64,000 nt of DNA from Candidatus Woesearchaeota archaeon (GCA_964639615.1 CAZXHH010000001.1:207247-271246), one strand, 5' to 3'; positions 25,755-35,138 are shown, numbered from the stretch's first letter. Notes: a model not told the origin generated them from the sequence alone. Program-made: numbers and translations.

Positions 25755-26462
25755 ATGAATTTTATAAAAAAGGTGCAAGAAAAAAATTTTGATGAAAGTG
25801 TCCATTTACAATTTCAAAAATTTTCAAAAGGAGAGTTTAGAAACAGGGCGCTTATTGAAGCAAAAAATTCTTCTGGAAATTATACTATAAAAACTTCTGC
25901 AGAATTTGCAAACGAATTAGTAAAAACTCTGGCTGAAAAATTAGGAAATGCTAAAACAAAGATTACTGGCTCGATAATCGGGACAAATGACTTGAAGGGG
26001 ATCCTAGAATTCAAAAAAATTTCACAATTCCAGGGTGTTAAAAACTATTCAATAGAACAGGAAATGTCTGGTTCTGAAATAATCAATTTAATAAATAAAT
26101 TCCCAAAGAACTTTTTTGCATTAAGTTTTTCTGTAGGAGAAGACACATTAAAAATAAAACCAAAGGCTCCTAAATCTGGAAAACCTGGCTCAAAAGGGGA
26201 TGAAGCTCCAAAGGTTGATTTCTGTTCTTTGAAAACTAAAGACAAGAAACTTGCAGAAAGCTTTATTTTTGATGCTCCTGAATTTAAGACCGCAACAATT
26301 AACCATACATTCTTAATTAATAGCATAGAAGTTCCAGCTGAACTAAAGACTTCTCAGGATTTTGCTCTTATCAGAGAAAAATCAAAAAGAGTTGGGCAAA
26401 TTGTAAGGATTGCTGAAATTGATGGAAAAAAGATTGAAAGTAAGCTTGAACTTAGAGCTTAA
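25755..26462 (+). CDS. Hypothetical protein upstream of the r-protein superoperon
   Basis: 235-aa soluble Lys-rich ORF with its own TATA box; no family recognised. Confidence 0.8.
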   Translation: MNFIKKVQEKNFDESVHLQFQKFSKGEFRNRALIEAKNSSGNYTIKTSAEFANELVKTLAEKLGNAKTKITGSIIGTNDLKGILEFKKISQFQGVKNYSIEQEMSGSEIINLINKFPKNFFALSFSVGEDTLKIKPKAPKSGKPGSKGDEAPKVDFCSLKTKDKKLAESFIFDAPEFKTATINHTFLINSIEVPAELKTSQDFALIREKSKRVGQIVRIAEIDGKKIESKLELRA

Positions 26463-28267: not shown

Positions 28268-28506
28268 ATTTAACACCAATAGCAACAGAAAAAGCAATAA
28301 TGAAAATTGAAGCAGAGAATATAATCACATTCAGTGTTGAAGAAAAAACAACAAAGGCAGAAATAAAAAAAGAAGTTGAAGAATTATTCAAAGTCAAAGT
28401 TCAAAAAATAAGAACTAGTGTAAGACACAATAAAAAAATAGCTTATGTTCAATTAAATAAAAAAGATTTAGCAATAGATTTAGCAACTAAATTAGGATTA
28501 ATGTAA
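28264..28506 (+). CDS. rpl23: 50S ribosomal protein L23
   Basis: PIATEKA, IKKEVEELFKVKV, KKIAYVQL. Confidence 0.95.
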   Translation: MNLTPIATEKAIMKIEAENIITFSVEEKTTKAEIKKEVEELFKVKVQKIRTSVRHNKKIAYVQLNKKDLAIDLATKLGLM

Positions 28507-28511
28507 ATAAA

Positions 28512-28556
28512 ATGAAAAATAAATTTTTCAATACAAAATTAGGAGATTTTGCATAA
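28512..28556 (+). CDS. Candidate micro-ORF 1 (MKNKFFNTKLGDFA), TAATG-coupled to rpl2
   Basis: Hand translation; starts 5 nt after the rpl23 stop; homologous to micro-ORFs 2 and 3. Confidence 0.55.
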   Translation: MKNKFFNTKLGDFA

Positions 28557-28558
28557 TG
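28531..28558 (+). repeat. Dispersed 28-nt repeat / hairpin, copy 1
   Basis: ATACAAAATTAGGAGATTTTGCATAATG. Confidence 0.95.
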
Positions 28559-29254
28559 GGAAAGACAATTATTCAACAGGCGCGTGGGCATGGAAGTTTA
28601 ACTTATAGAGCAAAGCCAACTTCATTTATTTATAAAATTCAATATCCAAATAAACTTGAAGGAGAAGGTACAGTGATTAGATTGCTAAGTTCTCCTGCAC
28701 ATTCTGCACCGTTAGCAAAAATAATTCATAAAGGGGAATCATTTTACATTCCTGCATTTAAAGGAATGATAGAAGGGCAAAAAATATCCTTTAGCTCTGG
28801 AGAAATAAAATCTGGAAATATTCTTCCTTTAGCAAAGATTCCATTAAAGACTCAAGTTTATTGTATTGAAGCTCACCCTGGAGATGGTGGAAAATTCATA
28901 AAGACTGGGGGAAATGCTGCAGTTGTAAGTAGAATTATTGGAGACAAAATATTGTTAATGCTTCCTTCAAAAAAAGAAAAAGCTTTCAATTCAAAATGTA
29001 GGGCTGTAATAGGACAAATTGCAGGACATGGGAGATTAGAAAAGCCAGTAGTTAAGGCAGGTAAAATGCATTATATTAAAAAAATCAAAAATAAATTATG
29101 GCCAAGAACAAGTGCACTTAAGATGAATGCAATTGATCATCCTTTCGGCTCAGGTAGAGGAAAGAATATTAAAAGCAAGATTGCCAAGAGAAATGCACCT
29201 GCTGGAAGAAAAGTTGGTCTATTGAGTCCAAGAAGGACAGGAAAAATGAAGTAA
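28556..29254 (+). CDS. rpl2: 50S ribosomal protein L2
   Basis: MGKTIIQQARGHGS, MNAIDHPFGSG, AGRKVG. Confidence 0.97.
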   Translation: MGKTIIQQARGHGSLTYRAKPTSFIYKIQYPNKLEGEGTVIRLLSSPAHSAPLAKIIHKGESFYIPAFKGMIEGQKISFSSGEIKSGNILPLAKIPLKTQVYCIEAHPGDGGKFIKTGGNAAVVSRIIGDKILLMLPSKKEKAFNSKCRAVIGQIAGHGRLEKPVVKAGKMHYIKKIKNKLWPRTSALKMNAIDHPFGSGRGKNIKSKIAKRNAPAGRKVGLLSPRRTGKMK

Positions 29255-29255
29255 A

Positions 29256-29651
29256 ATGGAAGTACAGAAAAAACAATTTATTTATCGAGGGAAAACAGTT
29301 GATGAATTAAAAAATTTAGAAGTTAGAGAATTTGCAAAATATCTTCCTTCAAGACAGAGAAGAACTGTGTTGAGAAATTTCCAAGTAATTGAAGATTTCT
29401 TAAAAAGAGCTAAAGAAAAACTTGACAAAGGAAAGAAAATCAAAACTCATTCAAGAGATATTATAATTGTTCCGCAGATGGTTGGAATGAATATTCAAAT
29501 TTATAACGGAAAAGTTTTCAATCCAGTTTTAATTGAACCTGAAATGCTTGGACACAGATTAGGTGAAATGTCAGGAACACGTTCAAAAGTAGCTCACAGT
29601 AAAGCAGGAATAGGAGCAACAAAGGGAAGCAAACACAAAGCTAAGAAATAA
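29256..29651 (+). CDS. rps19: 30S ribosomal protein S19
   Basis: IKTHSRDIIIVPQMVG, EMLGHRLGE. Confidence 0.97.
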   Translation: MEVQKKQFIYRGKTVDELKNLEVREFAKYLPSRQRRTVLRNFQVIEDFLKRAKEKLDKGKKIKTHSRDIIIVPQMVGMNIQIYNGKVFNPVLIEPEMLGHRLGEMSGTRSKVAHSKAGIGATKGSKHKAKK

Positions 29652-29652
29652 A

Positions 29653-30288
29653 ATGGAAAAACAATACGCACCATCAAAATTAGATAAGAAAGCACAAAAA
29701 AATATTACAGAAAAAGTAGTTAATGCTCCATTAAAAAATGAGAACAAAGAAAAAGTTGAAGATAAAAAAGTGCAAGAAGAAAAAGTTGAAGAACAAAAAA
29801 TTGTAGACGAGAAAACAACAAAAACAGACAAAAAAGAAATTAAAAAACCTGCAAAAAAAATCAAGAAAGATGAAGTTTATGTTAATGCTCACAGCGTTCA
29901 TGTATCGACAAAATATGCAATTAACATTTGCAAATTTGTAAAAGGAAAAAGAATTGGAGATGCAATAAGAGATTTAGAACAAGTTGCATTGTTAAAAAAA
30001 CCTGTTCCAATGAAAGGAGAATATTCACATAAAAAAGGAAAAGGAATGAGTGGTGGAGCTTACCCTCAAAGAGCAGCAAAACAATTCATAGTATTGCTAA
30101 AGAGCCTAGCTGGAAACGCAAACAATCATGAAATTGTTGAACCAATAATTGTTGAAGCAAGTGCAAATTGGGCACCTGCACCAAGAGGAAGATTTGGAAG
30201 AGTGAGAAGAAAAAGAACACACATAATGCTTAAAGCAGTTGAAATGAAAATTAAAGAAAATAAAAAGGAGAAAAAAATAACAAATTAA
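29653..30288 (+). CDS. rpl22: 50S ribosomal protein L22 with Lys/Glu-rich N-terminal extension
   Basis: STKYAINICKFVKGK, GAYPQRAAK, RKRTHI. Confidence 0.95.
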   Translation: MEKQYAPSKLDKKAQKNITEKVVNAPLKNENKEKVEDKKVQEEKVEEQKIVDEKTTKTDKKEIKKPAKKIKKDEVYVNAHSVHVSTKYAINICKFVKGKRIGDAIRDLEQVALLKKPVPMKGEYSHKKGKGMSGGAYPQRAAKQFIVLLKSLAGNANNHEIVEPIIVEASANWAPAPRGRFGRVRRKRTHIMLKAVEMKIKENKKEKKITN

Positions 30289-30289
30289 A

Positions 30290-30964
30290 ATGGAAGAAAA
30301 ACAAACAGTAAAATTCAAGAAAGATGAATTCGCAATCAAAGAATCTGTAAAAAAGATGCTTGGTAAAGGAAAAGTTAGCAAAGTTAGAATCGAATATACT
30401 CCTGTTGGAGAAAAAATAATAATCTCTTCGAATAAACCAGGTTTAATTATCGGTAGAGGCGGAGAAAAATTAAATGAAATTACAGAATTTTTGAAAAAGA
30501 ATTTCAAATTTGAAAATCTTCATTTAGATGTTGAAGAAATCACTGAACCAGAATTTGATGCTCAAATAATTGCTGATGAAATCGCATTAGGTCTTGAAAG
30601 ATTTGGACCTTTAAAATTCAAAATCCTTGCATACAGAAGTCTTGAAAAGGTAATGAAAGCTGGAGCGCTTGGATGTGAAATAAGATTAAGTGGAAAACTA
30701 CCAAGCTCAAGAGCAAAGACCTGGAGATTTGCACAAGGTTATCTTAAAAAAACAGGAGATAGCGCTAAAGTTGTTGATAGAGCACAATCAAGAGCAGAAA
30801 CAAAACCTGGAACAGTGGGCATAAAAGTTTCAATATTATCTCCACATGCAATATTAAAAGATAAAATAACTATCGACGACTCTCTACGACAAAGTCTAAA
30901 ATCAAATGAAAATGAATTTGAAAACAAACCAACTAAAAAATTAAGAAAAAATAAGGTAAAATAA
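30290..30964 (+). CDS. rps3: 30S ribosomal protein S3
   Basis: KH domain KPGLIIGRGG; GALGCEIRLSGKL; GTVGIKV. Confidence 0.97.
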   Translation: MEEKQTVKFKKDEFAIKESVKKMLGKGKVSKVRIEYTPVGEKIIISSNKPGLIIGRGGEKLNEITEFLKKNFKFENLHLDVEEITEPEFDAQIIADEIALGLERFGPLKFKILAYRSLEKVMKAGALGCEIRLSGKLPSSRAKTWRFAQGYLKKTGDSAKVVDRAQSRAETKPGTVGIKVSILSPHAILKDKITIDDSLRQSLKSNENEFENKPTKKLRKNKVK

Positions 30965-30965
30965 A

Positions 30966-31157
30966 ATGAAGTACAAAGAAATTACAAAAATGAACGATGA
31001 AGAACGAGAGAAAAAATTAAAGGACCTTAAAGTGGAATTAATAAAATCTAAAACAAAAGCTTCAAAAACAGGAAGTGCAAATACAAAAAATATAAGAAAA
31101 ACAATTGCACAAATTTTAACATTCAATACCTCTAAAAAGGGGGTGTTGAATAAATAA
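30966..31157 (+). CDS. rpl29: 50S ribosomal protein L29
   Basis: KLKDLKVEL..IRKTIAQILT; position after rps3. Confidence 0.92.
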   Translation: MKYKEITKMNDEEREKKLKDLKVELIKSKTKASKTGSANTKNIRKTIAQILTFNTSKKGVLNK

Positions 31158-31161
31158 AGAA

Positions 31162-31461
31162 ATGGAAATAGATCCAAAAACAGGATTGCCGTTAGCGGCA
31201 ATAGAATGGGAAAACCTCACAAGGGGTTCGCAAAGAATAAGCGTAACAACCGACAAGAAAAGATACGGAAAAATTGTTACACTTGTCAGCGGATTCGATA
31301 AAAGCGTCGATGTGAAAAAAATCGCAAAGGCTCTCAAAAACGAGCTTGCATGCGGTGGAACATTCAAGAACGACGTGATTGAGCTGCAAGGAGACCACAT
31401 GAAGAAGATAAAACCTCTTCTTATCAAGATGGGTTTCGAAAACAACTCAATAGAGGATTAA
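31162..31461 (+). CDS. sui1: Translation initiation factor aIF1 (SUI1/YciH)
   Basis: KKRYGKIVTLVSG, LKNELACGGT, IELQGDH. Confidence 0.95.
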   Translation: MEIDPKTGLPLAAIEWENLTRGSQRISVTTDKKRYGKIVTLVSGFDKSVDVKKIAKALKNELACGGTFKNDVIELQGDHMKKIKPLLIKMGFENNSIED

Positions 31462-31481
31462 ACCTTCCTAACAAAAACAAA

Positions 31482-31841
31482 ATGGAAAAGAAACAAAAAA
31501 CAAAAGTAGAAGCAAAACACAAAATTGAAAAAACAACAAATTTAGCGAATGCTGGAATTGTTGACGAAAGAGTTGGAACTAGAGGAAGAATATTCGAAGG
31601 AATAGTAACTAAAAAATTCCCAAAAAGAATTGTTCTTGAATTCGAAAGAATGATTTATGTTAGAAAATATGAAAGATATGCAAAATTAAAAACTAAAATC
31701 CACGCAAGGCTTCCAGTTGAAATGGAAAATCAAATTAATGTTGGAGATTTAATCAGAGTTCACGAATGCAGACCATTAAGCAAAATCATCCACTTCGTAG
31801 TTATTGAAAAATTAAAAGATGTTTCAGAGGTAAGAAAATAA
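31482..31841 (+). CDS. rps17: 30S ribosomal protein S17
   Basis: RGRIFEGIV, KYERY, ECRPLSK..HFVV. Confidence 0.96.
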   Translation: MEKKQKTKVEAKHKIEKTTNLANAGIVDERVGTRGRIFEGIVTKKFPKRIVLEFERMIYVRKYERYAKLKTKIHARLPVEMENQINVGDLIRVHECRPLSKIIHFVVIEKLKDVSEVRK

Positions 31842-31842
31842 A

Positions 31843-31884
31843 ATGAATAAAATAAAAGATACAAAATCAGGAGATTTTGCATAA
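31843..31884 (+). CDS. Candidate micro-ORF 2 (MNKIKDTKSGDFA), TAATG-coupled to rpl14
   Basis: Hand translation; starts 1 nt after the rps17 stop (TAAAATG, the operon's usual junction). Confidence 0.55.
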   Translation: MNKIKDTKSGDFA

Positions 31885-31886
31885 TG
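31859..31886 (+). repeat. Dispersed 28-nt repeat / hairpin, copy 2
   Basis: ATACAAAATCAGGAGATTTTGCATAATG. Confidence 0.95.
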
Positions 31887-32285
31887 AAAGCAATAAGTGC
31901 AAAAGGAACACAAGGACTAAATTTAGGAGCATTGGTAGTTGCTGCCGATAATAGTGGTGCAAAAATCGTAAAATTAGTTTCAGTTAAAAAATCAAAAGCT
32001 AAAAAAGGAAAACAAACTGCTGCAAAAATTGCAGATTGGGTAAAAGTATCTGTAAGAAAAGGTGTTCCAGATATGAAAGGAAAAGTTTTCGATGCAGTTG
32101 TTATAAGACAAAGAAAACCTTACAGAAGATTAAATGGAGAGAGAATTGCATTCGAAGATAATGCTGTTGCAATAATGAAAGATGAAAAAGGAAATCCAAA
32201 AGGAACTCAAATTAAAGGTCCAATATCAAGGGAGGTTCAGGAGAGATGGGCACAAGTTGCTAAAATAGCTCCGATGGTATACTAA
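31884..32285 (+). CDS. rpl14: 50S ribosomal protein L14
   Basis: ADNSGAK, FEDNAVAI, PKGTQIKGPI. Confidence 0.97.
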   Translation: MKAISAKGTQGLNLGALVVAADNSGAKIVKLVSVKKSKAKKGKQTAAKIADWVKVSVRKGVPDMKGKVFDAVVIRQRKPYRRLNGERIAFEDNAVAIMKDEKGNPKGTQIKGPISREVQERWAQVAKIAPMVY

Positions 32286-32286
32286 A

Positions 32287-32739
32287 ATGGAAAAAGAATT
32301 TTCAACACATTGGAAAGCAAGTTCTCAGCCAAGAAAGCAGAGAAAATATTTAGCTAACGCTCCGCTTCATTTAAGAAAAAAATTCGTAAGTATTAACTTA
32401 TCAAAAGAATTAAGAAAAAAATTCGGAAAAAGAAATATTCCTGCAAAGAAAGGCGATAAAGTTAAAGTATGTGTTGGAAAATTCAAAGGAAAAACAGGAA
32501 AAATACTCTCTGTAAATTTAAGAACTTCAAAAGTTGTTGTTGAAGAAATGCAGGTTAAGAAGATGGATGGTTCAAAGGCAAATGTTAAATTACAACCTTC
32601 AAATCTTCAGATTATAGAATCTGCAGAAAGAAAGATTGTTAAAAAAGAAGAAAATAAAGTTCAAAAAAGCAATGAAAAAACAGAAACAACTAAAAAGGAA
32701 ACAAAAACTAAAGTTAAATCAGGAGAAAATAAAAAATGA
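32287..32739 (+). CDS. rpl24: 50S ribosomal protein L24 with Lys-rich tail
   Basis: SSQPRKQRK, GDKVKVCVGKFKG KOW motif, PSNLQI. Confidence 0.96.
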   Translation: MEKEFSTHWKASSQPRKQRKYLANAPLHLRKKFVSINLSKELRKKFGKRNIPAKKGDKVKVCVGKFKGKTGKILSVNLRTSKVVVEEMQVKKMDGSKANVKLQPSNLQIIESAERKIVKKEENKVQKSNEKTETTKKETKTKVKSGENKK

Positions 32740-33386
32740 GTCACCTAAAAAGACATGCTGTGCCTAAAAGTTGGCCAATAGAAAGAAAAGGAACTACTTT
32801 TGTAGTTAAACCTAATTTAGGATTTGCAGACTCTCTCCCTGTTTTAGTTTTATTAAGAGATTTGCTTAAAGTTGCTAACAACAGAAAAGAAGTCAAAAAA
32901 ATGATTCATATGAAAAACCTTCTTATTAATGGAAGACCTATCAGAGATGAAAAAGAAGGAGTATTGCTCTTCGATGTAATTACACTTGTTCCTTCAAACA
33001 AACACTACAAACTTACAATACTTAAAAACGAAAAATTAAATGCTGAAGAAGTAAAAGAAAACGAATCAAATACAAAAATTGCAAAGATTGTTGATAAAAA
33101 AATGCTAAAAGGAAAGAAAGTTCAACTTAATTTAAGTGATGGAAGAAATTTCCTTTCAGATATAAAATGTAAAGTCGACGATTCTGTTGTAATAAATTTA
33201 AAAAATAAAAAAATTGAAAAATGTCTACCATTTACTGAAAATTCAGAAGCAATGGTCTTCGCTGGAAAACACTCTGGAGAAAAAGGAAAAATCGAAAACA
33301 TTAATCAAGAAAGAAAAATTGCACAGATAAACAATGGGAAAGAAACAATCAATGTATTAATTAAACAACTTATGATAATCAAATAA
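32736..33386 (+). CDS. rps4e: 30S ribosomal protein S4e
   Basis: HLKRHAVPKSW, QLNLSDGRN, GKHSGEKG. Confidence 0.95.
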   Translation: MSHLKRHAVPKSWPIERKGTTFVVKPNLGFADSLPVLVLLRDLLKVANNRKEVKKMIHMKNLLINGRPIRDEKEGVLLFDVITLVPSNKHYKLTILKNEKLNAEEVKENESNTKIAKIVDKKMLKGKKVQLNLSDGRNFLSDIKCKVDDSVVINLKNKKIEKCLPFTENSEAMVFAGKHSGEKGKIENINQERKIAQINNGKETINVLIKQLMIIK

Positions 33387-33387
33387 A

Positions 33388-33918
33388 ATGAAAACTGAAA
33401 CAAAAATGAAAAAAAACGAGAATGAAAATGTTATGAGAAAAGTAAGAATAGATAAAATTGTATTAAATGTAGGTGGAACAGCGGATGCTCTTGAAAAAGG
33501 ATTCAAATTATTAAAATATATAACTAAAGAAAAACCTGCAAAGATTAAATCAAATAAAAGAATTCCTACTTGGGGAGTTAGACCAGGCCTAGAAGTTGGA
33601 GCAGTTGTAACATTAAGAAAAAATTATACAGATTTGCTTAAAAGAATACTTACAAGCATAGACAATACTTTAAGAAAAAAACAAGTAAGCGAAAATAATT
33701 TTTCATTCGGAATAAAAGAATATATTGAAATACCGGGAATCGAATACCAAAGAGACATTGGAATTATAGGATTTGATGTTACTGTAGTATTCAAAAGAAG
33801 CGGAAGAAGAGTTGGATTAAGAAAAATGAAACAAGGGAAAGTTTCAAAAAAACAAATAATTTCAAAGGAAGAAATAATTAAATTTATGGAAGAGAATTTC
33901 CAAACTAAATTTATATAA
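33388..33918 (+). CDS. rpl5: 50S ribosomal protein L5
   Basis: IDKIVLNVG, GNFSFGI-like NNFSFGIKEYIEIPG, GFDV. Confidence 0.96.
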   Translation: MKTETKMKKNENENVMRKVRIDKIVLNVGGTADALEKGFKLLKYITKEKPAKIKSNKRIPTWGVRPGLEVGAVVTLRKNYTDLLKRILTSIDNTLRKKQVSENNFSFGIKEYIEIPGIEYQRDIGIIGFDVTVVFKRSGRRVGLRKMKQGKVSKKQIISKEEIIKFMEENFQTKFI

Positions 33919-33927
33919 GGAGACAAA

Positions 33928-34158
33928 ATGACTGCAAGTGATTGGAAAAAAATACTAAAACAACTGGATGCAAAACCAGTTATTAAACAGAAATATATTA
34001 AACACAACGAACCAAAGAAGAGAAAAACAGGAATCTCTGTAAAAAAATGTGAGAGATGCGGAAGATTTGGAGCACATATAAAATCATACGGATTAAATTT
34101 ATGCCGACACTGCTTTAGGGAAATAGCAGTTGAAATCGGTTTTCAAAAATATAGTTAA
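33928..34158 (+). CDS. rps14: 30S ribosomal protein S14 (Zn-binding)
   Basis: CERC..YGLNLCRHCFRE. Confidence 0.95.
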   Translation: MTASDWKKILKQLDAKPVIKQKYIKHNEPKKRKTGISVKKCERCGRFGAHIKSYGLNLCRHCFREIAVEIGFQKYS

Positions 34159-34159
34159 A

Positions 34160-34540
34160 ATGTCACACGATGTAGTTGCTGATGCACTAAATATGATAAA
34201 GAATGCCAAGATGGCAGGAAAGGAAAATATTGAGATTAAATTAATTTCAAATCTACTTATAGAAATATTAAAGATAATGAAACAAGAAAAAGCAATAAAG
34301 AAATACAAAATTGATGCTAAAGAAAAATCAATTAGTTTAACAATTGGAGAGATTACTGATTGTAAGGGAATAAAGCCAAGATTTAGTTGCGATAAATCTC
34401 AGATTGAAAAGTATAGAAGAAGATATTTGCCTGCTAGAAATATGGGAACACTTATTATATCTACAAACAAAGGATTAATGACTCACAAGGAAGCTCAAGA
34501 AGAAGGAATAGGAGGATGCGTTGTAGCATATTTCTATTAA
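34160..34540 (+). CDS. rps8: 30S ribosomal protein S8
   Basis: D.VADALNMIKNA, YLPARNMG.LIIST.KGLMTH; start moved to Met11 of the track ORF. Confidence 0.96.
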   Translation: MSHDVVADALNMIKNAKMAGKENIEIKLISNLLIEILKIMKQEKAIKKYKIDAKEKSISLTIGEITDCKGIKPRFSCDKSQIEKYRRRYLPARNMGTLIISTNKGLMTHKEAQEEGIGGCVVAYFY

Positions 34541-34545
34541 ATAAA

Positions 34546-34596
34546 ATGAAAAACAATAAATTTTTCTACGATACAAAATCAGGAGATTTTGCATAA
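34546..34596 (+). CDS. Candidate micro-ORF 3 (MKNNKFFYDTKSGDFA), TAATG-coupled to rpl6
   Basis: Hand translation; starts 5 nt after the rps8 stop; differs from micro-ORF 1 by in-frame codon indels. Confidence 0.55.
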   Translation: MKNNKFFYDTKSGDFA

Positions 34597-34598
34597 TG
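34571..34598 (+). repeat. Dispersed 28-nt repeat / hairpin, copy 3
   Basis: ATACAAAATCAGGAGATTTTGCATAATG, identical to copy 2. Confidence 0.95.
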
Positions 34599-35138
34599 AA
34601 AAAAGAATTCTCACAAGAAATTGAAATCCCAAGCGGAGTTGAAATAAAAAAAGAAGGAAGAAAAGTAATTGTAAAAGGAAAAACTGGGGAAGTTTCAAAA
34701 GAATTTACATTCGGAAAATTGAAATTTGAAGCTAAAGATGGAAAAGTAATTCTTAGCTATCCTATTGCAACAAAAAAAGAAAAAAGAATGATAAATACAA
34801 TTACTGCTCATATAAAAAATATGATTGCAGGTGCAGAAAACAAATTTGAATACAAGTTAAAAATATGTTCAAGCCACTTTCCAATAAATGTTGAAGTAAA
34901 AGGAAATAATATCTTAATTAAAAATTTCTTGGGTGAAAAAACTCCAAGAAAATGTACTCTCCCTGCTGGAGCAGAAATTGATGTTGCAAAAGATATAATC
35001 ACAATAAAATCTTCTAACAGAGAAATTGCTGGACAAGCTGCTGCAAATTTTGAAAATGCAACAATTGTAAGAAACAGAGATAGAAGAGTTTTCCAAGACG
35101 GAATTTATATTACTCAAAAACCTGGGAGGGAAATTTAA
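34596..35138 (+). CDS. rpl6: 50S ribosomal protein L6
   Basis: EIPSGVEI, SHFPI, NFLGEK, DRRVFQDGIYI. Confidence 0.97.
   Translation: MKKEFSQEIEIPSGVEIKKEGRKVIVKGKTGEVSKEFTFGKLKFEAKDGKVILSYPIATKKEKRMINTITAHIKNMIAGAENKFEYKLKICSSHFPINVEVKGNNILIKNFLGEKTPRKCTLPAGAEIDVAKDIITIKSSNREIAGQAAANFENATIVRNRDRRVFQDGIYITQKPGREI

Follow-up and report, generated by a model that had tools for sequence, protein, structure and literature searches.

The repeat family we describe here came to light in a 64,000-nt stretch of DNA labelled Candidatus Woesearchaeota archaeon (GCA_964639615.1 CAZXHH010000001.1:207247-271246), referred to below at its full length as the window, in which three short inserts, W1, W2 and W3, lie between consecutive genes of the ribosomal-protein (r-protein) superoperon. 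Each insert holds a micro open reading frame (micro-ORF) that opens next to the upstream stop codon and closes on the next gene's start codon. We propose that the inserts belong to a short modular repeat family of DPANN archaea (Woese-, Pace- and Nanoarchaeota) which probably works as a copy-prone translational relay cassette. This proposal is built on the family itself, its placement at gene starts, the selection on its frame, the covariation of its hairpin, its polymorphism among strains and the spacing of TATA boxes; the translation of the micro-ORF, the re-initiation, the benefit to the host and the route of copying are what we infer from the sequence.

Three inserts in the r-protein superoperon

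The window, whose G+C content is ~30%, carries on its + strand the r-protein superoperon L3-L4-L23-L2-S19-L22-S3-L29-SUI1-S17-L14-L24-S4e-L5-S14-S8-L6-L32e-L19e-L18-S5-L30-L15-SecY, as identified by Pfam and in a gene order that matches that of relatives. The homologues of its L14 are labelled Nanoarchaeota, Pacearchaeota and Nanoarchaeia, which makes the source a DPANN archaeon. No gap from L3 to L15 exceeds 20 nt except the three taken up by the inserts of 49, 42 and 55 nt, flanked according to Pfam by L23/L2, S17/L14 and S8/L6, and these cut the operon into blocks of 3, 7, 6 and 7 genes. The micro-ORF ATGs of W1, W2 and W3 lie 5, 1 and 5 nt past the upstream stop, and each micro-ORF ends in TAATG on the next ATG. 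An earlier interpretation by a model, hereafter the sequence-only reading, had placed three mini-genes at these positions with these peptides, in the only sizeable gaps from L3 to L15, each starting 1-5 nt past a stop and ending in a TAATG overlap; coordinates, translations and gap lengths bear it out on every one of these points. It had also called the mini-genes homologous, and indeed they share a 26-nt core, ACAAAATYAGGAGATTTTGCATAATG, which occurs exactly three times in the 64 kb against 0.00 expected from 100 dinucleotide shuffles. The features, given with the bit scores of the covariance model and with the Shine-Dalgarno (SD)-like motif of each hairpin 2, are the following.

28507-28555, + strand: copy W1, a 49-nt insert between L23 (28264-28506) and L2 (28556-29254); 61 bits.
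28512-28556, + strand: W1 micro-ORF, MKNKFFNTKLGDFA; ATG 5 nt past the L23 stop, TAA (28554-28556) overlapping the L2 ATG (28556-28558).
28513-28530, + strand: W1 hairpin 1, UGAAAAA / UAAA / UUUUUCA; the UG of the micro-ORF start codon lies within the stem.
28534-28551, + strand: W1 hairpin 2, CAAAAUU / AGGA / GAUUUUG; SD-like GGAG (28542-28545) in the loop and the first stem base; closing pair U-G.
31842-31883, + strand: copy W2, a 42-nt insert between S17 (31482-31841) and L14 (31884-32285), with a shortened 5' module without hairpin 1; 58.5 bits.
31843-31884, + strand: W2 micro-ORF, MNKIKDTKSGDFA; ATG 1 nt past the S17 stop, TAATG at 31882-31886.
31862-31879, + strand: W2 hairpin 2, CAAAAUC / AGGA / GAUUUUG; GGAG at 31870-31873.
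34541-34595, + strand: copy W3, a 55-nt insert between S8 (ending at 34540) and L6 (34596-35138); 79 bits.
34546-34596, + strand: W3 micro-ORF, MKNNKFFYDTKSGDFA; ATG 5 nt past the S8 stop, TAATG at 34594-34598.
34548-34566, + strand: W3 hairpin 1, GAAAAA / CAAUAAA / UUUUUC.
34574-34591, + strand: W3 hairpin 2, CAAAAUC / AGGA / GAUUUUG; GGAG at 34582-34585.
29252-29258, + strand: L2/S19 junction, TAAAATG, empty in the window; the ~97%-identical strain L001 has a 56-nt copy there, MKNKKFFNNTKLGDFA.

No fourth copy was found in the 64-kb window by a pattern allowing 3 mismatches, by an nhmmer profile or by the covariance model with filters off; this last search gives the three copies 58-79 bits and the next best match in the window 17 bits, with an E of about 1. 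No Rfam 15 family matches the cassettes, neither in a gathering-threshold scan of the window, which returns two tRNAs only, nor in a permissive scan of 28300-34800. Three independent Logan assemblies match the window at 100% identity across 2.4 kb and break off within W2, as expected at a real repeat, so that W2 is not an assembly artefact.

A modular repeat family in front of genes

The sequence-only reading had left the presence of the element beyond the window to a search of related genomes, and about 114 distinct copies are found in DPANN genomes and metagenomes. Scanned with a gapped pattern, 185,579 species-representative genomes yielded 73 stretches, about half of them in roughly 25 DPANN metagenome-assembled genomes, and a scan of metagenomes added 78 more, mostly from groundwater and sediment. 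About half of the hits of the genome scan (Acinetobacter, Treponema, Bacteroidales and others) are without the GGAG loop and the micro-ORF and were discarded as chance matches. After de-duplication, 114 genuine copies remain in Woese-, Pace- and Nanoarchaeota genomes and in metagenomes, to which a profile search alone adds 28 diverged copies. A viral origin was rejected, since 2.9 million viral contigs gave 0 matches.

All the copies are sense-oriented and end exactly on the start codon of a gene: in 95 of the 114, what follows is an ORF of 60 aa or more, or one running off the contig, and in most others it is the micro-ORF of a chained cassette. The cassette consists of an ATG by the upstream stop, then an open micro-ORF, then a hairpin carrying GGAG in its loop and finally a stop overlapping the next start (TAATG), within units of 42-58 nt, or composites of up to about 170 nt, at about 25% G+C. 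The 3' module, the end on which the scans relied, is nearly invariant, and the conservation extends beyond the SD motif (ACAAAAU..GCAUA). The 5' part is modular, with the variants ATGAAAAAYAA(R)AAATTTTTC.., ATGACAGAAC...GTTCAGCAC.. and ATGAGCAAACAGGAAATTTGCC.., and a middle hairpin, for instance ..GTCCTCGGCAGGAAACCTGCGGAT, may follow. Some copies have a 5' module that repeats their 3' module (L140: AAAAATAGGAGATTTTGCATAG), which gives the element the look of a hairpin unit of about 25 nt that has been duplicated. The middle module GGCAGGAAACCTGCGG/GGAAACCTGCGG (..GTCCTCGGCAGGAAACCTGCGGAT..; L037, L083, L103, L115 and L135) may resemble the 3' strand and loop of 16S rRNA helix 45 by the anti-SD, a likeness that could be due to chance; none of the loci collected includes a 16S 3' end.

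Cassettes also follow one another, either as chains of micro-ORFs in which each TAATG falls on the next ATG (L120, L131, L132 and L123) or as in-frame tandem arrays in which TAA has become TAT (L111, L125, L161 and L046). Arrays of 2-4 units with a period of ~38-46 nt, reminiscent of variable-number tandem repeats (VNTRs), are seen at L111:780-913, L125:230-315, L161:2560-2736 and L123:1-91 (reverse strand).

A Pfam search of 83 downstream proteins identified S3, L2, S19, SUI1, L14, L6, S4, L5, L22, S11, L32e, L24, RpoL and Rpb1, together with RadA, CDC48, the exosome RNase PH, T2SSF-like pilus proteins, SecDF, UDG and TRM5. Genes of translation and transcription follow about half of the copies. 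Since RadA, CDC48, pilus and other genes are also found downstream, the cassette is not a device of ribosomal operons, and the operon-tuning system for the r-protein superoperon imagined in the sequence-only reading is too narrow: the junctions are tight in most relatives, and cassettes precede the RadA, CDC48, RNase PH, pilus-assembly, SecDF and UDG genes.

Two contigs deserve separate mention. The 6.6-kb contig L067 (DATJPO010000049.1), labelled Candidatus Omnitrophota bacterium, has a typical cassette, MKNPRFFLCPRQESADTKSGDFA, before a ParA/MinD-like gene, and is probably a mis-binned DPANN contig. At L164:2971-3070 (- strand), the cassette begins about 20 nt past a sequence resembling a tRNA 3' end, GGGTTCGAATCCCGACCGGCGCA, and may be co-transcribed with a tRNA precursor or processed from it.

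The frame is kept and the peptide is free

An intact ATG..TAA(TG) ORF is present in 105 of the 109 complete copies, and in 2 further complete copies (L101 and L115) the upstream gene has lost its stop and reads in frame through the element to the TAATG. The gene so extended is that of a GatA-like amidase in L101 and that of L22 in L115. Between L22 and S3 of L083 (about 2430-2826), an ORF of ~87 aa (MIKGLKSGKKYF...) reads into two fused cassette units and ends on the TAATG of S3, giving a 131-aa product.

Taken without regard to frame, the first ATG past the upstream stop shares the frame of the TAA, with no stop in between, in 67 of the 75 coupled copies, and these span 17 distinct in-frame lengths from 39 to 165 nt. 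The binomial probability is 4e-4 when distinct lengths are counted and 7.5e-24 when copies are counted, the latter overstating independence because the copies share a common descent. The distance from the upstream stop to the ATG peaks at +1 (25 copies), +2 (10) and -4 (8), and lies mostly between -4 and +8 nt. The overlap of stop and start survives changes of sequence, as TAGTG (with a micro-ORF that also starts with GTG), TGATG, CAATGA or AAATGA.

In at least 8 copies, the loss of 1 nt before hairpin 2 is compensated by the gain of 1 nt inside it, which turns DTKSGDFA into IQNQEDFA and still leaves the frame open from the ATG to the TAATG. The differences from the consensus are non-synonymous and synonymous in the ratio 106:17 in the 53-nt class and 30:7 in the 50-nt class; the second codon positions vary most, and the micro-ORFs range from 12 to 41 codons with unrelated middle segments. 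This is the signature of a frame under selection and of a peptide that is not, as if the ORF had to be translated through and its product were irrelevant. The frame retention noted in the sequence-only reading for three copies of different lengths thus holds across the family, even through compensated frameshifts. Conservation of the ATG and of the frame in relatives, on which that reading had staked itself, fails position by position and stands for the family as a whole.

The same observations bear on the functional micropeptides and ribosome-arrest peptides that the sequence-only reading had also offered. The recurrence of MKNKFF.DTK[S/L]GDFA in most copies speaks for them, but it follows from the conservation of the nucleotides, and the conserved DNA is read in two frames. 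Because the compensated frameshifts keep the ORF open and the differences are mostly non-synonymous, we exclude both readings; judged by the conservation of its peptide, with two frames in use, the micro-ORF is not a regulatory leader or arrest peptide.

In two copies on one contig, L166:2562-2640 and L166:3542-3620, the TAATG is replaced by TACGACGCCATAAAATGG, followed by an identical downstream sequence, ATGGCGAAGTCATTT, and the micro-ORF enters the gene in another frame. The pair may represent a duplicated gene with a decayed cassette.

A covarying hairpin displays the SD-like motif

The sequence-only reading had overlooked that the core is a hairpin, and that in W1 and W3 a second one covers the start of the micro-ORF. 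The core is the inverted repeat CAAAAUY / AGGA / GAUUUUG, that is a 7-bp stem with an SD-like GGAG in its loop, 10 nt before the AUG of the gene, and the lone C/U difference among the three copies of the window preserves a G-C or a G-U pair. The second stem-loop, (U)GAAAAA / loop / UUUUUC(A), takes in part of the micro-ORF AUG and is lost in W2.

In a covariance-model alignment of 130 copies (113 distinct), which was fitted to the model and so leans towards its own structure, 98.8% of the cells of hairpin 2 are paired and both partners are exchanged in 4 of its 7 pairs (C-G to A-U or U-A; U-A to C-G or A-U; A-U to U-A). None of 500 shuffles reaches the observed covariation, and sliding the partner by 1-3 columns reduces the pairing to 20-61%. 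The raw list of stems presents the same changes, plus the paired deletion or insertion of a base pair (CAAAAC/GUUUUG, CAAAUC/GAUUUG, CAAAAUAC/GUAUUUUG). The GGAG-like sequence stays in the loop in nearly all the variants, while the loop length goes from 3 to 13 nt. Many variants of hairpin 2 are kept solely by G-U pairs, which would be A-C mismatches on the opposite strand, and this points to a hairpin acting as sense-strand RNA. For hairpin 1, the mean best stem is 5.9 bp, against 3.1 bp at downstream gene starts and 3.8 bp in shuffles (p = 1.4e-12), and alternative stems are found (GAAC/GUUC, GAAAC/GUUUC, GCAAA/UUUGC and CUGAA/UUCAG).

Occupancy changes within a species-level lineage

In L001, L009 and L010, which are about 97% identical to the window in nucleotide sequence, the S17/L14 junction is a plain AAAATGA overlap without W2. 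Among these four sequences, S17/L14 is filled only in the window and L2/S19 only in L001, and it is precisely at the element sites, 29255/29256 and 31850/31883, that the BLAST alignments to these ~97%-identical strains are interrupted; which junctions are occupied thus varies inside one species-level lineage. This polymorphism, the more than 100 copies and the tandem arrays uphold another option of the sequence-only reading, that of a tiny copying element at stop-start junctions.

More distant relatives extend the pattern. In L007 (L14 88% identical, about 77% in nucleotides) the three junctions are tight, with gaps of 4, 1 and 1 nt, and in L005 and L006 (L14 92% identical) only S8/L6 is filled, by a diverged in-frame copy, MKNKKFFKDTKLNGGCFA. 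Further away, S17 and L14 overlap without a cassette in L011, the S8/L6 junction is near-tight in L015 and L016, and S17/L14 is without a cassette in L014, L015 and L016, with an extra ORF of 114 aa between the two genes in L014 and L016. This ORF (L014:9655-9999 and L016:1099-1443; L14 88% identical) has no Pfam hit, overlaps S17 by 4 nt and stops 1 nt before L14, and the site of W2 seems to take insertions of different kinds.

L025 and L113 are close in L2 sequence to L140 and L146, and the two pairs nonetheless have different family members at L23/L2. The vertical descent of the L23/L2 copies, suggested by an apparently shared TTA variant, was rejected, since L140 and L146 carry another 5' module and TCA; it follows that copies are replaced or converted and that position alone is no proof of orthology. 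Comparison between species gives 79-100% identity for the 5' module, a part that no search pattern contained, whereas the third codon positions of the adjacent r-protein genes are 41-62% identical. Such a difference implies either purifying selection or a likeness kept by continuing copying or conversion.

As for the mode of copying, the resolvable pairs present a flanking repeat of only 2-3 nt, which makes classical transposition look less likely than copying or conversion through microhomology. The two filled/empty comparisons (AA and AAT) reveal no fixed target duplication, and classical transposition was set aside as less likely on that ground. The ends of the element, ATGAAAAAT and ATTTTGCAT, match as inverted repeats at 8 of 9 positions (ATGAAAAAT/ATGCAAAAT), a match that was not counted, the ends being A/T-rich and coinciding with start and stop signals. 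No transposase partner turned up at the filled/empty sites, in the course of work that included no search aimed at an autonomous partner.

Two observations concern the neighbouring genes. In L001:1-611, L2 is called as two ORFs (54 and 98 aa) and the one gap in the BLAST alignment to the window is a frameshift, which could reflect an assembly error or a pseudogene. Directly upstream of L3 in the window, a 235-aa ORF without Pfam match (25755-26462) is conserved in position and length in L005, L007, L011 and L014.

Two probable entry routes

The family includes 66 copies coupled to an upstream ORF, 12 chained to a preceding cassette and 21 without an upstream ORF within 15 nt. A TATA-like hexamer starts 26-30 nt before the micro-ORF ATG in 71% of the 21 uncoupled copies, against 8% of the coupled ones, and an upstream SD-like motif is found in 1 of the 21. 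In archaea, the centre of the TATA box lies about 26-27 nt upstream of the site where transcription starts. On the basis of this spacing, the transcript of the uncoupled copies would start at, or next to, the micro-ORF AUG, which suggests that these copies are leaderless fore-cistrons.

The position of these boxes also tells on the idea that the inserts are internal archaeal promoters restarting transcription before L2, L14 and L6. The A/T-rich 5' modules fit it, but a TATA-like box at the distance expected of a promoter is rare in the coupled copies (8%, against 71% of the uncoupled ones), neither alternative 5' module (ATGACAGAAC.. or ATGAGCAAAC..) is TATA-like and a promoter has no need of an open frame. 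The boxes of the uncoupled copies lie upstream of the cassette and not inside it, and an internal promoter was rejected for this reason; we regard this explanation as very improbable.

A proposed model for the relay

In the model we propose, a copy has a gene's start codon on one side and, on the other, either the end of a preceding reading frame or the beginning of the transcript. A ribosome terminating upstream would re-initiate on the micro-ORF AUG 1-5 nt away; alternatively, a ribosome would load on the leaderless 5'-terminal AUG. It would then translate 13-16 codons, thereby melting hairpin 2, and terminate on UAAUG, where the contact of GGAG with the anti-SD, 10 nt upstream, would hold the small subunit and allow re-initiation on the gene. 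At transcript starts, the cassette would convert a leaderless initiation into an SD-assisted re-initiation.

Termination-reinitiation is almost abolished at a spacing of about 20 nt in Haloferax volcanii and E. coli (PMC10666635), so that an insert of 42-55 nt would break the coupling and the relay would avoid this. Short upstream ORFs (uORFs) can deliver ribosomes (PMC12548453). The ribosome relay was among the options of the sequence-only reading, and the ATG-to-TAATG frame, kept across many lengths and compensated frameshifts, argues for it.

Several points weigh against this relay. Both collection scans required TTTTGCATAATG, the 3' end being thereby ascertained in advance and the 28 profile-only hits alone being free of this bias; the covariance alignment and the count of copies in the frame test carry the reservations given with them. 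A few copies (L096, L131, L149 and L166) are out of frame. The whole element folds at only -5.7 to -8.2 kcal/mol (z -1.5 to -2.6), one variant does no better than shuffles and both hairpins are weak, although for the same reason a ribosome should melt the stems easily. Hairpin 1 hides part of the micro-ORF AUG, an awkward arrangement for leaderless initiation. The flanking repeats of the two resolvable filled/empty pairs are indistinguishable from chance in A-rich junctions. Furthermore, the junctions of relatives are already coupled by TAAAATG or ATGA overlaps, so that the insert brings no obvious gain, which favours a neutral or selfish reading. Finally, the hosts are uncultured DPANN archaea and the support for the relay is sequence-based.

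Alternative explanations

The most serious alternative is purely selfish DNA, comparable to mycobacterial interspersed repetitive units (MIRUs) or to miniature inverted-repeat transposable elements (MITEs), of which only the coupling-preserving insertions survive; the frame, the SD motif and the UAAUG would then minimise harm without any gain for the host. Gain and loss at different junctions between strains, the arrays and chains (L111, L161, L123, L120, L131 and L132) and the tight coupling of relatives' junctions without the element all agree with it, and the same interpretation has been given for MIRUs (PMC12548453). Such an origin leaves unexplained that all copies run in the sense direction and stop exactly at a start codon, and that copies are enriched before translation and transcription genes. 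It also has against it a conservation between species far above that of neutral sites, though ongoing copying could mimic it, and the want of a consistent target duplication, of clear terminal repeats and, within the limits of the search described above, of a transposase partner. We consider it rather unlikely as the whole explanation. Mechanistically, it is the same relay and differs only on who benefits: orientation, start-codon anchoring and the bias towards expression genes argue for integration into the host, and junctions that work without the insert argue that it is dispensable.

A bolder form of the relay hypothesis holds the cassette to be a host-maintained, copy-and-paste initiation module, a natural bicistronic design (BCD) placed preferentially before highly expressed translation and transcription genes and spread without transposase, which would make it the first of its kind in Archaea and the second independent invention of the MIRU strategy. 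We put this forward tentatively, as a possibility somewhat less probable than its contrary.

The hairpins might instead serve as the operator of a trans-acting factor, either a CsrA-style binder of GGA loops or an r-protein, that co-regulates the cassette genes, the micro-ORF passing on the repression by coupling. A conserved, covarying stem-loop displaying AGGA/GGAG, a conservation that extends past the SD motif and a shared downstream set of translation and transcription genes are what such an operator would call for, and there is a precedent in the repression of iraD by CsrA via a coupled uORF (PMC5574718). No candidate factor was identified, however; the cassette precedes unrelated genes too, the loop length and the surroundings of GGAG vary widely, and a presence that differs between near-identical strains would be odd for a core regulon. 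This explanation appears improbable to us.

We give still less credit to a role in the processing or stability of the mRNA, in which the hairpins would be endonuclease sites or would protect segment ends, splitting the operon transcript as bacterial repetitive extragenic palindromic (REP) elements do. The division of the operon into blocks by intercistronic copies and the conservation of the hairpins on the sense strand are compatible with it, but it does not account for the strict ATG-to-TAATG frame or for the stop-start overlap, the stems are short and A/U-rich, and copies are also located at transcript 5' ends. The internal promoters dismissed above are less probable again, and the micropeptides or arrest peptides, whose lengths of 12 to 41 aa go with unrelated middles, are the least credible of all.

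Significance

The relay that we suggest, read from the sequence features of the cassette, is of a kind known from MIRUs and BCD. Could evolution have built twice, in mycobacteria and in DPANN archaea, the device that synthetic biologists designed for predictable translation? If the relay is true, it has done so, and here as a portable module. The family would then offer a natural test bed for the reach of termination-reinitiation in archaea, for the combination of leaderless and SD-dependent initiation on one mRNA and for the help that an SD motif in a hairpin loop might give in retaining a post-termination ribosome. Should it be selfish DNA and nothing more, it would still illustrate cleanly how a mobile element can be shaped so that operon translation does not notice it.

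On the practical side, these ORFs of 13-40 codons have no annotation in the records examined, whose gene calls pass over the gaps, and the repeat breaks short-read assemblies, as with the three Logan contigs that end inside it. The variable occupancy and the tandem arrays could mark strains in uncultured DPANN archaea, as MIRU-VNTRs do for M. tuberculosis.

Comparison with known systems

No description of this family was found in the literature on coupling, leaderless transcripts, repeats or uORFs in DPANN archaea, Woesearchaeota or Pacearchaeota. The kind of element is another matter, and the sequence-only reading went too far in calling the system undescribed, because MIRUs are already short intercistronic repeats with coupling ORFs (PMC12548453, PMC3184786).

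Like REP elements and bacterial interspersed mosaic elements (BIMEs), MITEs and Rickettsia palindromic elements (RPEs), the cassettes are small, hairpin-forming, multicopy repeats with a mosaic or modular construction, and some of those elements tolerate or exploit reading frames (PMC3184786). The cassette differs from them in being strictly sense-oriented and anchored to a start codon, in lacking a consistent target duplication and clear terminal inverted repeats and in having no known mobilising enzyme, and it is much smaller than RPEs and MITEs. REP elements and BIMEs are extragenic palindromes that occur in either orientation, as a rule 3' of genes and with no tie to start codons, whereas the cassettes are all co-oriented with the start codon on which they end.

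The direct overlap of the stop and start of two genes requires a near-zero distance, and the cassette recreates two such junctions, one per end; the difference is that here a dispensable micro-ORF bridges two real genes. With BCD and leaderless BCD cassettes, the nearest functional analogue, which use a fore-cistron architecture (PMC10367133; PMC12548453 ref. 78), the architecture is identical: a short fore-cistron with an embedded SD motif for the second cistron and a stop overlapping the gene start, placed in the leaderless version at the 5' end of the transcript. Unlike BCD, the cassette is natural, repeated and evolving, has conserved hairpins and is also found inside operons, where it would be fed by terminating ribosomes, and its function is putative.

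Among natural elements, the closest likeness is to MIRUs, which are, following Supply et al. (1997) as summarised in later papers, intercistronic repeats of 40-100 bp within polycistronic units, co-transcribed and with filled and empty sites (PMC12548453, PMC3184786). Their ORFs overlap the neighbouring genes and are thought to allow insertion at start codons with little effect on expression (PMC12548453); the overlap is of -4, tetranucleotide direct repeats flank the filled sites and the inverted repeats are G-C-rich (PMC12548453, PMC3184786). The cassette is likewise a short, dispersed, co-transcribed intercistronic repeat with a small ORF overlapping the next gene start; it too contains inverted repeats, has filled and empty sites among relatives and forms tandem arrays at some loci. 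It differs in its host, a DPANN archaeon and not Mycobacterium, in its overlap of -1 (TAATG), in its flanking repeats of 2-3 nt instead of tetranucleotides, in the GGAG displayed in the loop of a covarying hairpin and in those copies that are apparently leaderless first cistrons. Being A/T-rich, it looks unrelated to the G+C-rich MIRUs, from which it is set apart by description and not by alignment. The cassette is thus an analogue of the MIRUs and not a member of that family.

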